From positions 1 to 32,953 of the forward strand of contig CALBRH010000045.1 in assembly GCA_937899865.1 (NCBI GenBank): a stretch of 32,953 nucleotides of DNA, written 5' to 3'. Position numbers and translations under genes: made by a program. The DNA comes from an uncultured euryarchaeote. GTDB taxonomy: Archaea > Thermoplasmatota > Poseidoniia > Poseidoniales > Poseidoniaceae. Shown here one piece after another: positions 23,978 through 27,909 of the stretch. The first letter of the stretch is position 1; each line of letters begins with the position of its first letter. The notes below the pieces were generated by a model. It was not told where the DNA came from and ran no database searches. It saw only the letters and a list, made by a program, of their open reading frames with translations.

Positions 23978-24400
23978 TCACCAATCGCTGGTGAAAGCGT
24001 TTGGATTAACGACTTTTTCAGACTCCCTAGTCCAAATCTGTCCAGCGTCACCACTTGAATAAACATCACCGAAAGGATCGATTTCTTCGGTTTTCTTACT
24101 GCGTTGCATATAAGCCTCAACACTCTCACGCAAGTCTGGCTTAAACTTCCAGTAGTGGATACGCCACTCGCGACCATCCCACAAAGTAGTTTCTTCACTT
24201 TCAGTAGTCAGTAGATTGTAATCTTGGAACATGTAAAACAGGTTTCTATCAGTTGGTTCTAGAGCATTATCAATAATTCGATTGTAAAAACCAAAAAATC
24301 CTAACGCGTGTTCGGCCATACCTTGAGCAACTTCACTATCCATCTCCAAGTCGATATGTTGCTGAATTGCTTTGGTTAATTCTCCTAATGTCATTCCCAT
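23978..24400 (-). CDS. DUF6015-like conserved Thermoplasmatota protein (about 140 aa; start ATG 24400 or 24394)
   Basis: FFGFYNRIIDNALEPTDRNLFY...LLTTESEETTLWDGREWRIHYW. The family assignment is from memory. A G-rich SD-like run precedes 24400. Confidence 0.7.
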   Translation of the reverse strand: MGMTLGELTKAIQQHIDLEMDSEVAQGMAEHALGFFGFYNRIIDNALEPTDRNLFYMFQDYNLLTTESEETTLWDGREWRIHYWKFKPDLRESVEAYMQRSKKTEEIDPFGDVYSSGDAGQIWTRESEKVVNPNAFTSDW

Positions 24401-24523
24401 CAAAATACCCCCGGCCCCGACTTTCAGTCTTAGAACACTATTAATTATTGTAAGCCGACCCATATTAAATCTTCGGTGAAAATGGCTTTTTTTTACTGAC
24501 ATCCGGCAAAACGTGTCCGCAAA

Positions 24524-25492
24524 ATGACACCAAACGCTCAATACCACAAAGGCCTGCCAAGGTTCGTGGCAGAGGAGTTTGTTGAAGGCAATTTCTTGGG
24601 TTTGCCTAGCAAGCCCGGCAATGCAGATGTTGTTATTTTACAGGTTCCATATGAATTGACAACTTCTTATGGCCAAGGAACAGCACAAGGCCCAGCAGCC
24701 TGTATTACGGCAAGCGGACAAGTCGAATTATTTGATCCAATACTCGGTGAAGATTTGCCAGCTGGATACAATATTCACACAGCCCCTGAGTGGAATGGCG
24801 AAGGCAATACTCTAGAACAACAATTAGCAAATATCTCAAACTATCTTGCTAAATGGAATAATGGAACAACATTTCCAGTAATATTGGGTGGAGAGCACGG
24901 TATATTGCCGCCAATCATCAAATCGCTTACCAATCATCCAGCAATAGATGGAGATTATTCTAAGTTAAATATAGTTCAAATCGACGCCCATGCCGATTTG
25001 CGTGAGGAATTAGATGGCGAGCCATTTTCACATGCCTGTGCCGCCTCAAGAGCTATGGATTATGGCCTCAAACACCTCTATCAAATCGGTATCCGTGCCT
25101 TTTCTAAGGAAGAATATGAACGAATCAATACGGATGAAAAAATAACGACATTTTTTGCAGCAGACATCCTTCGAAATAATGCCAAATGGCAAAAATGCCT
25201 TGATGCACTTAGAGCAATCGAGGGACCAGTCCATTTGACAATTGATATCGACGGCCTTGATGGTAGCATAGTTCCTTCCACAGGCACGCCAGTCCCTGGA
25301 GGGCTAAATTTTTGGCAAGCAGTAGAAATAATTGAAGCATTATTTTCTGCACCTAATGCAAAGATTATCAGCATGGATGTTAATGAGATAGTGCCTCAAA
25401 AAGACACTCCATTAACACAATTTACTGCAGCAATGCTTGCTACAAAAGGTATAGTAAACCACATAAATAAAAGAAAATCCAATCGGTGGTAA
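24524..25492 (+). CDS. speB: Agmatinase (ureohydrolase family), 322 aa
   Basis: Motifs PYELTTSYGQGT, GGEH, QIDAHADLR, SHA, TIDIDGLD, GTPVPGG and DVNE. Confidence 0.9.
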   Translation: MTPNAQYHKGLPRFVAEEFVEGNFLGLPSKPGNADVVILQVPYELTTSYGQGTAQGPAACITASGQVELFDPILGEDLPAGYNIHTAPEWNGEGNTLEQQLANISNYLAKWNNGTTFPVILGGEHGILPPIIKSLTNHPAIDGDYSKLNIVQIDAHADLREELDGEPFSHACAASRAMDYGLKHLYQIGIRAFSKEEYERINTDEKITTFFAADILRNNAKWQKCLDALRAIEGPVHLTIDIDGLDGSIVPSTGTPVPGGLNFWQAVEIIEALFSAPNAKIISMDVNEIVPQKDTPLTQFTAAMLATKGIVNHINKRKSNRW

Positions 25493-25514
25493 TCAAGGTA
25501 ACAGGGGGAATAGT

Positions 25515-25892
25515 ATGGCCAATGCTCACGGAGTTCACATTCTAGCTGACTATACTGGTTTTTTTCCAAAACTCGATAATACCGGAGAATGGATACTTTC
25601 TTTGATGGAACAAGTCATTGATGAGAGTACAGCAAATAGAGTCCATTCACATATCGAGGAATTTGATGGAACATCTTCACCTCCAGGTTTTGCTGCTGTA
25701 GTTTTATTGGATGAAAGCCATCTAACCGCCCATTGTTATTCAGAGAAAGGTTGGCTTTCAATCGATTGTTTTACTTGTGGCTCAACCAATCCAGGCGCAA
25801 TTATCGATGCTATGCATTCAGCAATTCAAGATGCTTCACCTGGTATAAAACTTGAGAAACGCAAAACAGAAGCAAGATTTACCAACGGGTGA
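25515..25892 (+). CDS. speD: Pyruvoyl-dependent SpeD-fold decarboxylase proenzyme (AdoMetDC or neofunctionalised Arg/Orn decarboxylase), 125 aa
   Basis: GVHILAD, LLDE|SH self-cleavage site (Ser68 at 25716-25718) and IDCFTCG. GGGGGA SD upstream. Confidence 0.85.
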   Translation: MANAHGVHILADYTGFFPKLDNTGEWILSLMEQVIDESTANRVHSHIEEFDGTSSPPGFAAVVLLDESHLTAHCYSEKGWLSIDCFTCGSTNPGAIIDAMHSAIQDASPGIKLEKRKTEARFTNG

Positions 25893-25896
25893 GCAA

Positions 25897-26844
25897 ATGA
25901 CAATTCGAGATTTTGTTGATACATATTTCCACCATTTCAATGCTGGAGAGGTTAGGAAAGCAGCCCAATCACTCGCCCAATTTCTTTCCGATGGTGGCAA
26001 AATTTTCCTAACCTTAGCCGGTGCAATGAGCACAGCAAGACTTGGAAAAGTTCTGGCTCCAATGATCAACTCCGGCTATATAGCTGGCATTTCATGTACG
26101 GGTGCTAATTTAGAAGAAGACGTATTTCTCCTTGCTGCTAATTCACATTACCAATCGATAGAAGATTGGCGTAGCCTATCTGCAGACGATGATGCTGATT
26201 TATTAGAAAAAAAACTCAACAGAGTAACCGATGTATGCATTCCCGAAGACCAAGCAATTAGAGCGATTGAAAAAGCCATATTTTCGCTTTGGCAAGAATA
26301 TTCGACTGCGCAACAGTCAGCATTGCCGCACGAATTTTTCTATCAAATGCTACTGAATAATCAGCTAATAATTGATGGCAACCCAGATGATAGTTGGGTT
26401 TTGGCTGCCGCTAAGCACAATCTTCCACTATTTGTTCCAGGTTGGGAAGATTCAACACTTGGTAATATTTTTGCATCCCATGTAATTCAATCAGACATCG
26501 ATCCATCAGTTGTCAAGAGCGGAATACACTATATGACCGAGTTAGCAAAATGGTATGAGTCACAAACAACACAGTTAGCATTTTTTCAAATCGGTGGAGG
26601 CATTGCTGGAGACTTCCCAATATGTGTGGTACCGATGTTAAATCAAGATTTACAGCGCCAAGTTCCTTTATGGTCATGGTTTTGCCAAATCAGTGAAGCA
26701 AATCCATCGTATGGAGGTTATTCAGGTGCTCCACCTAATGAAAAAATAACTTGGGGGAAACTGGCTAAAGAAACTCCGAAATTTGTCATTGAAAGTGACG
26801 CGACCATTGTTGCACCACTAATCTTTGCATACCTACTAGAATGA
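25897..26844 (+). CDS. dys: Deoxyhypusine synthase-like protein (bacterial-type; possible homospermidine synthase); probable start ATG 25897
   Basis: Motifs HHFNA, AGAMST, TGANLEEDVF, PGWEDSTLGN, QIGGGIAGDFPICVVP, YSGAPPNEKITWGKL and ESDATIVAPL. Confidence 0.9.
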   Translation: MTIRDFVDTYFHHFNAGEVRKAAQSLAQFLSDGGKIFLTLAGAMSTARLGKVLAPMINSGYIAGISCTGANLEEDVFLLAANSHYQSIEDWRSLSADDDADLLEKKLNRVTDVCIPEDQAIRAIEKAIFSLWQEYSTAQQSALPHEFFYQMLLNNQLIIDGNPDDSWVLAAAKHNLPLFVPGWEDSTLGNIFASHVIQSDIDPSVVKSGIHYMTELAKWYESQTTQLAFFQIGGGIAGDFPICVVPMLNQDLQRQVPLWSWFCQISEANPSYGGYSGAPPNEKITWGKLAKETPKFVIESDATIVAPLIFAYLLE

Positions 26845-26874
26845 AAAATAGTTTTGAGTAAGGAGGCAACTGAC

Positions 26875-27909
26875 ATGGCAGAACCAAAAGACAGGTATTT
26901 TCTGATTGAATACTTGGTAATAGCGGCAGTAATTTTTACTGCCACATCATTGTATTTTGAAGAATCCGCCCAAGAATCAAATGATTTGGAATTGATTTCA
27001 TTAACTGGCACAATCGAATTATCGACTAGAGATTCAATGGATACTTTTGGGTTGCAGAATTTCAAAACCGGAGCAATAGCCAATCTAAATCTTTCAGTAA
27101 ATTCAATTCAAGTGCCTGAATGCGCAACATGTACAACCACTACCTCAGGAAATATGTTACATGGGGAGATAATAATCACTGAATTATTTGACTTCGAAAA
27201 CCGACTTGGGAGAGTGGAAGGCAATCTAAATTTCACTCATTTACTGACTTTTTCGAGTTCACAATATGTTATTACTGAACAGGTTTACTTTCATTGGTCT
27301 GCTGGAGATATAGAATCCTCTTGGAAATTAACCTTAAATCACGACCCTCCACGATGGTTGCCTAAATATGACATAAACACCTTATTTGTCGAAACAGAAC
27401 TCGGCCTAGAATCAAGGGCTGGCCCAGAACTACTGATAAAAAGTCCAAGTACTAACCAAAGAATAATCCATGCTTGTTTACCGGATAGTTTCCTTTGTAA
27501 AAGTTCTTCACCAGACGCTTTGCTAATAGCGAATTATGGCCCAGTTCAAGAAGAAATACTCGTCTCAGATTCGATGGAATGGCACCTTCACAATCTAAGC
27601 AACTATTCACATGCAAATATTATGGACAGCTTTGCAGATGAACTCTTGCCGTTGGAAAATTCAATTCCCAACCAATATGGATTTACTCCATGGCCGGAGC
27701 CAGAATTAGTTAATGCTTCCACATATCTTATCGAAGACCAAGATACTAGAATTCTTCCACTTTCAATTTGGTTTAATTCAATTGATTTAACGCCTATACA
27801 AATCGATCTTTTTGGCCAAAGTGTAGTTTACATGAAAAACGAATCATATAGCGTTTACAATATTTTAAACTCCGATGGTAGTATGAAAGTTGGTTTAGTA
27901 ATTTATTGA
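26875..27909 (+). CDS. Hypothetical membrane-anchored protein, beta-rich; probable start ATG 26875
   Basis: AGGAGG SD at 26861-26866, an N-terminal TM (FLIEYLVIAAVIFTATSLYF) and CxxC (CATC). No family recognised. Confidence 0.75.
   Translation: MAEPKDRYFLIEYLVIAAVIFTATSLYFEESAQESNDLELISLTGTIELSTRDSMDTFGLQNFKTGAIANLNLSVNSIQVPECATCTTTTSGNMLHGEIIITELFDFENRLGRVEGNLNFTHLLTFSSSQYVITEQVYFHWSAGDIESSWKLTLNHDPPRWLPKYDINTLFVETELGLESRAGPELLIKSPSTNQRIIHACLPDSFLCKSSSPDALLIANYGPVQEEILVSDSMEWHLHNLSNYSHANIMDSFADELLPLENSIPNQYGFTPWPEPELVNASTYLIEDQDTRILPLSIWFNSIDLTPIQIDLFGQSVVYMKNESYSVYNILNSDGSMKVGLVIY

Follow-up and report, generated by a model that had tools for sequence, protein, structure and literature searches.

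A cluster of three genes, speB-speDA-speY, was described in Marine Group II (MGII)/Poseidoniales archaea by Li et al. (JBC 2023; PMC10407285), who found two MGII SpeD homologs to be arginine decarboxylases (ADCs) without AdoMetDC activity. In an E. coli speD strain these proteins did not restore spermidine, arginine was the sole substrate decarboxylated, and kcat/Km was low at 64-180 M-1 s-1 (PMC10407285). The two source organisms, uncultured marine group II/III euryarchaeote KM3_15_H06 (SpeDA AIF02979) and Ca. Poseidonales archaeon isolate 70165 (DAC51064), belong to the same lineage as the archaeon studied here and carry the same three families in a cluster; the pathway for these clusters was drawn via putrescine, SpeDA being the archaeal enzyme that was assayed. 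In bacteria, every SpeY tested joins two agmatines to form N1,N9-bis(guanidino)homospermidine (G44G, also known as diagmatine or caldomycin), G44G accumulates when SpeB is missing, and those SpeY-linked SpeB homologs that were tested break down G44G by hydrolysis but leave agmatine intact (PMC10981699, PMC13625781). The Thermus thermophilus CdmS/SpeY, which works with a ureohydrolase in the caldomycin pathway (PMC10981699), and the bacterial SpeY/DUH 'diagmatine' pathway (PMC13625781) likewise operate alongside an ADC and a hydrolase of arginase fold. Capsulimonas corticalis follows the same logic of three genes, its ADC likewise derived from SpeD (speDA-speB-speY); its SpeDA proved to be an ADC in 2023 and its SpeY to make G44G in 2026, in a paper whose SpeY and SpeB enzymes were bacterial only. 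The C. corticalis SpeDA forms a clade separate from, and evolved independently of, the MGII/Gimesia/stramenopile clade (PMC10407285).

Here we document such a cluster in a Poseidoniaceae (MGIIa) archaeon (genome of 2.01 Mb, 91% complete): its gene identities, catalytic residues and family placement, the missing alternative routes, and its order-wide conservation and fusions. We conclude that it is probably a SAM-independent homospermidine module that runs via G44G and not via putrescine. The window, the whole stretch of 32,953 nucleotides that was analysed, comes from a species other than KM3_15_H06 and 70165; identity to the window SpeDA is ~73% for homologs in the same MAG data set. The 2023 description answers a doubt left by the original prediction as to whether the cluster had been reported for this lineage, and both the cluster and its decarboxylase activity are therefore already known. 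The features of the locus are as follows.

23981..24400, minus strand: DUF6015 gene, divergent neighbour of speB (PF19479, 262 bits)
24401..24523, no strand: intergenic region of 123 bp between the divergent DUF6015 and speB genes, with two A+T-rich TATA-like boxes
24524..25492, plus strand: speB-like gene, arginase-fold ureohydrolase of 322 aa (PF00491, 187 bits; TIGR01230, 175.7 bits)
25515..25892, plus strand: speDA, SpeD-fold protein of 125 aa (PF02675, 61 bits)
25897..26844, plus strand: speY, bacterial-type deoxyhypusine synthase (DHS) homolog of 315 aa (PF01916, 152 bits)

All three genes point the same way and are separated by 22 and 4 bp, as first read from the sequence. The program-made list of open reading frames opens the DHS-like gene at TTG 25852 and not at ATG 25897; the 4-bp gap is correct because the database members (315 aa) start at ATG 25897, 4 bp past the SpeD stop.

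SpeDA has the fold of class 1b AdoMetDC, scoring 61 bits with PF02675 against a cut-off of 25, and in the PDB it most closely matches the AdoMetDC proenzymes 2iii and 1tlu. In an alignment with T. maritima AdoMetDC, S63, H68 and C83 correspond to S68, H73 and C88 of the window protein, and W70-P71 to Y75-S76, the window motif being HCYSE as against HTWPE in bona fide AdoMetDC. Ser68, His73 and Cys88 were invariant across 116 homologs, while position 76 was Ser in 112 and Pro in none. The proline is invariant in bona fide AdoMetDC and its loss distinguishes SpeDA (PMC10407285). Sixty of 61 order genomes held one SpeD homolog each, which makes the two MGII proteins assayed by Li et al. orthologs of the window SpeDA. 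The retained Ser, His and Cys, the absent Pro and the ADC-only orthologs uphold the earlier reading of this gene as an arginine decarboxylase rather than an AdoMetDC. They support the assignment of the protein as a probable pyruvoyl-dependent arginine decarboxylase of AdoMetDC fold, predicted to cleave itself between Glu67 and Ser68.

A bona fide AdoMetDC at this position would imply that spermidine is made via an aminopropyltransferase missing from the assembly, as the Pfam family name and a genome just 91% complete could suggest. However, speE was not found in the window or in the whole 2.01-Mb, 91%-complete genome, as a search proposed with the original prediction had asked, and it was not found in 150/151 order genomes, single-contig ones included. 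A bona fide AdoMetDC would be expected to exceed the TIGR03330 cut-off and to be partnered by SpeE; the window protein scores 68 bits under a cut-off of 75.65, and no speE was found for it. Together with the proline missing in all 116 homologs and with MGII orthologs that decarboxylate only arginine, this leaves the AdoMetDC reading effectively refuted. The same genome search saw no pdaD, PLP-dependent ADC/ODC, agmatine deiminase or CASDH/HSS in the 91%-complete genome (PF02784, PF01276 and PF04371 not found; PF03435 none above cut-off) and recovered a second DHS. With neither speE nor an alternative route found in this 91%-complete genome, the proposal that these genes together encode a SAM-independent homospermidine pathway gained support. 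Genes for aIF5A and TiaS are present, and SpeDA is the one enzyme seen that could supply TiaS with agmatine, in agreement with the suggestion that the cluster could also supply agmatine for tRNA-Ile agmatidine.

The two DHS homologs of the genome are only 24% identical, and the window gene is the second, non-canonical paralog. The copy on contig C65 is the true ortholog of canonical archaeal DHS, passing NF002294 at 364.7 bits against a cut-off of 350, whereas the window SpeY reaches 101.6 bits; its best score with any NCBIfam DHS model was 128.5 bits (cut-off 434). With canonical archaeal DHS (NF002294; 7cmc, 8put) the window SpeY has in common the fold, the NAD-binding glycine motifs and the catalytic Lys. 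It retains this Lys (WGK) together with the Glu before it, its stretch NEKITWGK aligning to human E323...K329, and the DHS fold, Lys and Glu are likewise common to T. thermophilus CdmS. The top NCBIfam match was NF001980, 'homospermidine biosynthesis protein', at 150.1 bits against a cut-off of 450, and NF002699 gave 106.3 bits against a cut-off of 500; both models appear to rest on narrower bacterial groups. Identity to 80 SpeYs (79 bacterial, 1 from Micrarchaeia) was 46-59%, including 56% to the SpeY of Caldilineaceae, a family that supplied one of the tested enzymes. In a quick IQ-TREE phylogeny, whose root is unreliable as it rests on a single very long DHS outgroup, the MGII SpeYs formed a single clade among bacterial SpeYs. 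By identity, tree and NF001980 match, the window SpeY thus falls with bacterial SpeY and apart from the aIF5A-modifying DHS, which suggests that it is a candidate agmatine homocoupling enzyme (diagmatine/G44G synthase).

We also compared individual residues of the active site. Phe204 and Leu286 of T. thermophilus CdmS, which differ from human DHS, are Asn and Tyr in the window SpeY, and archaeal canonical DHSs likewise differ from human DHS at these positions, which therefore have no discriminating value. The substrate-pocket residues D243/D316 were rejected as a marker of CdmS versus human DHS, since they are absent in archaeal canonical DHSs too, that of this genome included.

An agmatine-based route of aIF5A modification has reportedly been proposed for haloarchaea by Prunetti et al. 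2016. In a module of this Haloferax style, the DHS-like enzyme would put an agmatine-derived group on aIF5A and the agmatinase homolog would trim it to deoxyhypusine, a possibility that had been raised for this locus and that draws on the presence of aIF5A in a genome that makes no spermidine. Against it, the canonical DHS above its NCBIfam cut-off is encoded elsewhere in the genome, and two DHS-type matches occur in 144/151 order genomes. Furthermore, the window paralog clusters with enzymes from bacteria, which have no aIF5A. We therefore regard an aIF5A module as very improbable.

The SpeB-like protein carries the binuclear-metal ligand motifs GGEH, DAHAD, DIDGLD and MDVNE. It is encoded by the only arginase-fold gene in the host genome, single-copy in 60/61 order genomes, and shows 35-36% identity to SpeY-adjacent SpeBs of Caldilineaceae. 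To our knowledge, no sequence discriminator between diagmatine ureohydrolase (DUH) and agmatinase (AUH) has been published, and PDB matches to the SpeB-like sequence did not separate a preference for agmatine from one for G44G. By analogy with the bacterial enzymes, it is a candidate diagmatine (G44G) ureohydrolase that would catalyse the final step to homospermidine.

The synteny check in MGII suggested with the original prediction retained the gene order speB-speDA-speY in 12/15 loci across the two main families of the order. This recurrence in both families indicates that the arrangement is not due to chance. The module was found in nearly every genome sampled from the order, SpeY-type genes occurring in 147/151 genomes, and speDA adjoined speY in 15/15 sampled loci. 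In three sister genera, SpeDA and SpeY were fused in one open frame in each of the 14 genomes, linking the producer of agmatine directly to SpeY; one genome had speB-speDA in a single frame.

These observations bear on the order of steps originally drawn, agmatine to putrescine to homospermidine. In that order SpeB would be a true agmatinase making putrescine, and the DHS-like enzyme would join two putrescines, or putrescine and another donor, to give homospermidine. The field accepted this scheme until 2024, PMC10407285 draws it so, and the SpeB-like protein does pass the TIGR01230 agmatinase model, marginally (175.7 bits against a cut-off of 174.3). However, the tested bacterial SpeYs all need agmatine and pile up G44G without SpeB, the SpeY-linked SpeBs show no agmatinase activity, and the window SpeY falls in this agmatine-coupling, bacterial-type family. 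A canonical agmatinase would moreover drain the substrate of SpeY and, here, of TiaS also, and the SpeDA-SpeY fusions would unite the first and third steps of a putrescine route but the first two of the G44G route. The original order of steps was therefore not sustained, and we consider a putrescine route unlikely. Because tested bacterial SpeYs use agmatine and their SpeBs act on G44G, putrescine is probably not an intermediate.

In the G44G pathway that we favour, SpeDA would cleave itself at Glu67/Ser68 to yield its pyruvoyl cofactor and convert L-arginine to agmatine. SpeY, as an NAD-dependent DHS-fold enzyme working via a lysine-imine intermediate, would then transfer the butyl-guanidine part of one agmatine to the amino group of another, producing G44G, from which the SpeB-like ureohydrolase would strip both ureas to leave sym-homospermidine. 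The pathway would run without SAM, PLP or putrescine. A share of the agmatine pool would go to TiaS for tRNA-Ile2 agmatidine, and aIF5A modification would be left to the separate canonical DHS on another contig. That the archaeal SpeY and SpeB would act like their bacterial relatives is inferred from homology. Compared with the bacterial SpeY systems, the host is archaeal, the ADC is of SpeD fold and SpeY lies under the NCBIfam equivalog cut-offs; the host also adds a canonical DHS, aIF5A and TiaS, which would place agmatine at a three-way branch point.

We also examined the surroundings of the cluster. The two TATA-like boxes were read directly from the sequence of 24401..24523, relatives hold comparable paired TATA-like strings in their intergenic regions, and a promoter role for this region may be proposed on that basis. 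No match to Rfam families was obtained in and around the cluster. The DUF6015 gene adjoins speB in 28/28 order genomes with both positions listed and stands without a polyamine gene within 2.5 kb at 20/20 loci elsewhere in the phylum. As a phylum-wide core gene without polyamine neighbours outside the order, it was discounted as a regulator dedicated to these genes and is probably not a pathway member. A 351-aa open reading frame downstream was left out, since relatives show no synteny of that frame with the cluster.

This finding adds no new kind of system, as the cluster and its ADC activity were published earlier. It adds the order-wide presence of the module, the lack of a detected speE in 150/151 genomes and SpeDA-SpeY fusions throughout three sister genera (14/14 genomes), and the G44G route should take the place of the putrescine step in the published scheme. 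More tentatively, and at slightly short of an even chance, Poseidoniales may run the diagmatine route with undescribed twists, namely the SpeDA-SpeY fusion and a canonical DHS that uses homospermidine or agmatine as butylamine donor. In the fusion, the pyruvoyl-bearing alpha chain would stay covalently joined to the DHS-fold enzyme and pass agmatine straight on. If the order as a whole lacks spermidine synthesis, the canonical DHS would need homospermidine or agmatine as the butylamine donor for aIF5A. PMC13625781 asks whether archaea possess both an agmatine-dependent and a spermidine-type DHS, and this reading, if true, would give the answer. The SpeDA-SpeY fusions, and a host that has both SpeY and a canonical DHS and no spermidine, provide a direct handle on spermidine-free hypusination of aIF5A. 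Marine Group II archaea rank with the most abundant uncultured archaea in the surface ocean. Homospermidine is apparently their sole self-made polyamine, produced without SAM or PLP, and this reliance bears on how MGII metabolism and marine polyamine pools are read.

The cluster comprised three open reading frames (ORFs) on the same strand, flanked by a divergently oriented DUF6015 gene:

23981-24400, minus strand: DUF6015 gene, divergent neighbour of speB
24524-25492, plus strand: speB-like arginase-fold ORF (PF00491, 187 bits; TIGR01230 agmatinase, 175.7 bits against a cut-off of 174.3)
25515-25892, plus strand: speDA, 125 aa, class 1b AdoMetDC fold (PF02675, 61 bits; TIGR03330, 68 bits, below the cut-off of 75.65)
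25897-26844, plus strand: speY, 315 aa, deoxyhypusine synthase (DHS) fold (PF01916, 152 bits)

The ORF lister began speY at a TTG at 25852; an alternative ATG at 25897, 4 bp past the SpeD stop, gives the 315-aa SpeY listed in databases, so the 22-bp and 4-bp gaps noted originally hold. Members of the 90% clusters of these proteins carry the name 'Candidatus Poseidoniaceae archaeon', which places the source of the window in Marine Group IIa (within MGII). The top NCBIfam match of speY was NF001980 'homospermidine biosynthesis protein' (150 bits), and in the profile search the protein fell below all NCBIfam equivalog cut-offs, those for DHS included. A 351-aa ORF (26854-27909, plus strand) begins 10 bp past speY, with a likely start at an ATG at 26877 behind GGAGG; it has a hydrophobic N-terminal segment and no Pfam or NCBIfam match, and is followed by a very large ORF of >1680 aa. 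The 351-aa ORF lay beside the cluster in 0/15 related loci and is therefore probably unrelated to the polyamine pathway.

Clustering of speDA with speB and speY has been published for the MGII lineage, in 'uncultured marine group II/III euryarchaeote KM3_15_H06' and, identically arranged, in 'Ca. Poseidonales archaeon isolate 70165' (Li, Liang, Phillips, Michael, JBC 2023, PMC10407285); the original prediction had left prior publication unverified. Neither MGII SpeD homolog restored spermidine in E. coli speD, and L-arginine was the only substrate decarboxylated by the purified proteins (kcat/Km 64 and 180 M-1 s-1). The same study defined SpeDA by a retained processing Ser, retained catalytic residues (His and Cys) and loss of the Pro invariant in true AdoMetDCs. 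This region of the window protein reads LLDESHLTAHCYSEKGWLSIDCFTCG; S63, H68 and C83 of T. maritima AdoMetDC align with its S68, H73 and C88, and W70-P71 with Y75-S76. Among 116 homologs Ser, His and Cys were invariant and none had Pro at position 76. Of 61 genomes from the order that were at least 90% complete, 60 carried a single SpeD homolog, so the MGII proteins that were assayed must be orthologous to the window gene. Together, the residue pattern and the arginine-only orthologs support the predicted identity of the SpeD-fold enzyme as an arginine decarboxylase (ADC). One SpeDA homolog, the cluster representative P0075 (146 aa, 66% identical), belongs to a cluster assigned to a contig of ~104 Mb, a length that points to a eukaryotic genome, in agreement with published stramenopile SpeDA homologs.

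Whole-genome searches of the 2.01-Mb assembly (65 contigs, 91% complete; the window is contig C45) identified one SpeD homolog, one arginase-fold gene and two DHS homologs, one of them a second DHS on contig C65. No spermidine synthase (speE), PdaD-type pyruvoyl ADC, alanine-racemase-fold ADC/ODC, AAT-fold decarboxylase or agmatine deiminase was found in this 91%-complete genome, nor any CASDH/HSS-type dehydrogenase above cut-off; the lack of speE first noticed in the window thus held genome-wide. No other polyamine route is thus recognisable in the genome, and the cluster's decarboxylase is the only visible source of agmatine. Across the order, a SpeY-type gene (at least 49% identity) was present in 147/151 genomes and two DHS-type matches in 144/151; speE was not found in 150/151, single-contig genomes included. 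SpeB was single-copy in 60/61 genomes. Across MGII, 12 of 15 sampled loci had the order speB-speDA-speY; some genomes of MGIIb, the other main family, carried speB apart from speDA-speY. Three MGIIb genomes (G011, G045, G073) had no SpeY-type match. No close SpeY was found in genome G004 (family f2), in which speB adjoins a DHS homolog sharing just 29% identity with the window SpeY (C6:52600-54575).

DUF6015 was present in 151/151 genomes sampled from the phylum and 0/14 control genomes. It lay beside speB in divergent orientation in 28/28 genomes of the order, including those with speDA-speY elsewhere; beyond the order, 0/20 loci had a polyamine gene near it. An AlphaFold model built from a single sequence (pLDDT 62) resembles a winged helix, and Foldseek returned only weak matches (E at least 0.03), to PadR, MarR and TFE-alpha. 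PF02002 (TFIIE_alpha) had no match in the window's genome and was above cut-off in only 22/101 genomes of the phylum.

Scanning a single genome for each species recovered 596 relatives of SpeY. Among the best 80 of the 596, which were 46-59% identical to the window SpeY, 79 were bacterial (hosts included Planctomycetota, Verrucomicrobiota, Acidobacteriota, Bdellovibrionota, Gemmatimonadota and Caldilineaceae) and one was from a Micrarchaeia archaeon. The window SpeY was equally close to bacterial-type SpeYs and to those of the other MGII family. A rapid maximum-likelihood tree, rooted insecurely on one very long outgroup branch, grouped the 27 MGII SpeYs in one clade (SH-aLRT 99) among bacterial SpeYs. 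The catalytic Lys and the Glu before it were both conserved. Judged by sequence, the window SpeY is a member of the bacterial-type SpeY family. Its nearest non-MGII representative, P0221 (756 aa, on a 2.5-kb JGI contig), contains AdoMet_dc, NNMT/PNMT/TEMT-type methyltransferase and DS domains, and may be eukaryotic; SpeDA homologs are reported in stramenopile algae (PMC10407285).

The original prediction placed an agmatinase step, with putrescine as intermediate, between SpeDA and SpeY. In T. thermophilus, the DHS homolog CdmS converts two agmatines to the bis-guanidino triamine caldomycin/G44G, which a ureohydrolase converts to homospermidine (2024, PMC10981699). SpeYs of diverse bacterial phyla, associated with three different ADC folds including SpeDA, all yield G44G, and the tested enzymes, all bacterial and none archaeal, gave homospermidine only with SpeB present (Li et al. 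2026, PMC13625781). Agmatine activity was undetectable in the SpeBs linked to SpeY in C. aerophila and W. algicola, and a canonical agmatinase, it was argued, would starve SpeY (PMC13625781). By analogy, putrescine as an intermediate is most probably wrong: SpeDA would convert arginine to agmatine, SpeY would use agmatine directly to form G44G, and the SpeB-like enzyme would release homospermidine. We infer all of these enzymatic steps for the window's own proteins; the predicted SAM-independent homospermidine module would be retained.

Natural gene fusions bear on the same question. In 14/14 genomes of genera g3, g6 and g7, three genera within the window's family, speDA and speY formed one unbroken reading frame of ~430-500 codons:

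L018:3190-4530: SpeDA-SpeY fusion, continuous open frame
L019:2754-4265: SpeDA-SpeY fusion, continuous open frame
L020:2514-4016: SpeDA-SpeY fusion, continuous open frame
L021:3042-4355: SpeDA-SpeY fusion, continuous open frame
L126-L135: SpeDA-SpeY fusions, continuous open frames

AdoMet_dc and DS domains were also combined in two representatives of 50%-identity clusters, of 469 and 453 aa. The fusion was found in 0/24 other loci examined, and neither of two JBC papers on the pathway (PMC10407285 among them) mentions it. Self-cleavage would leave the pyruvoyl alpha chain joined to SpeY. Fusion of the agmatine producer to SpeY fits direct agmatine use better than an intervening agmatinase step, which is supportive rather than proof. 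At L025:1884-3605 (G015, MGIIb genus g16), speB and speDA share one 574-codon frame uninterrupted by a stop; this single genome has unusual composition and a long tree branch, and the frame may be an assembly error.

The second DHS (L001:1474-2481, minus strand) passed the NCBIfam equivalog NF002294 (364.7 bits against 350) and was 24% identical to the window SpeY, in agreement with the reading of the DHS-like gene as a separate paralog. In this canonical DHS, Ala replaces the human spermidine-binding Asp243 (GSIGAQLF), which may be linked to the lack of spermidine in the order; other archaeal DHSs vary there too. Whether archaea contain both agmatine-dependent and spermidine-type DHS proteins is a question posed in PMC13625781. 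A Haloferax-style route, in which the window module would serve agmatine-dependent aIF5A modification, is unlikely because a canonical DHS is encoded elsewhere in the genome and SpeY is bacterial in affinity. aIF5A, encoded with TiaS on contig C51, instead appears to be served by its own canonical DHS. As TiaS is present and no other agmatine source was found, the module would, as predicted, also supply agmatine for tRNA-Ile2 agmatidine. From established DHS chemistry, homospermidine is the obvious candidate for the donor used by the canonical DHS in an organism that lacks spermidine synthesis.
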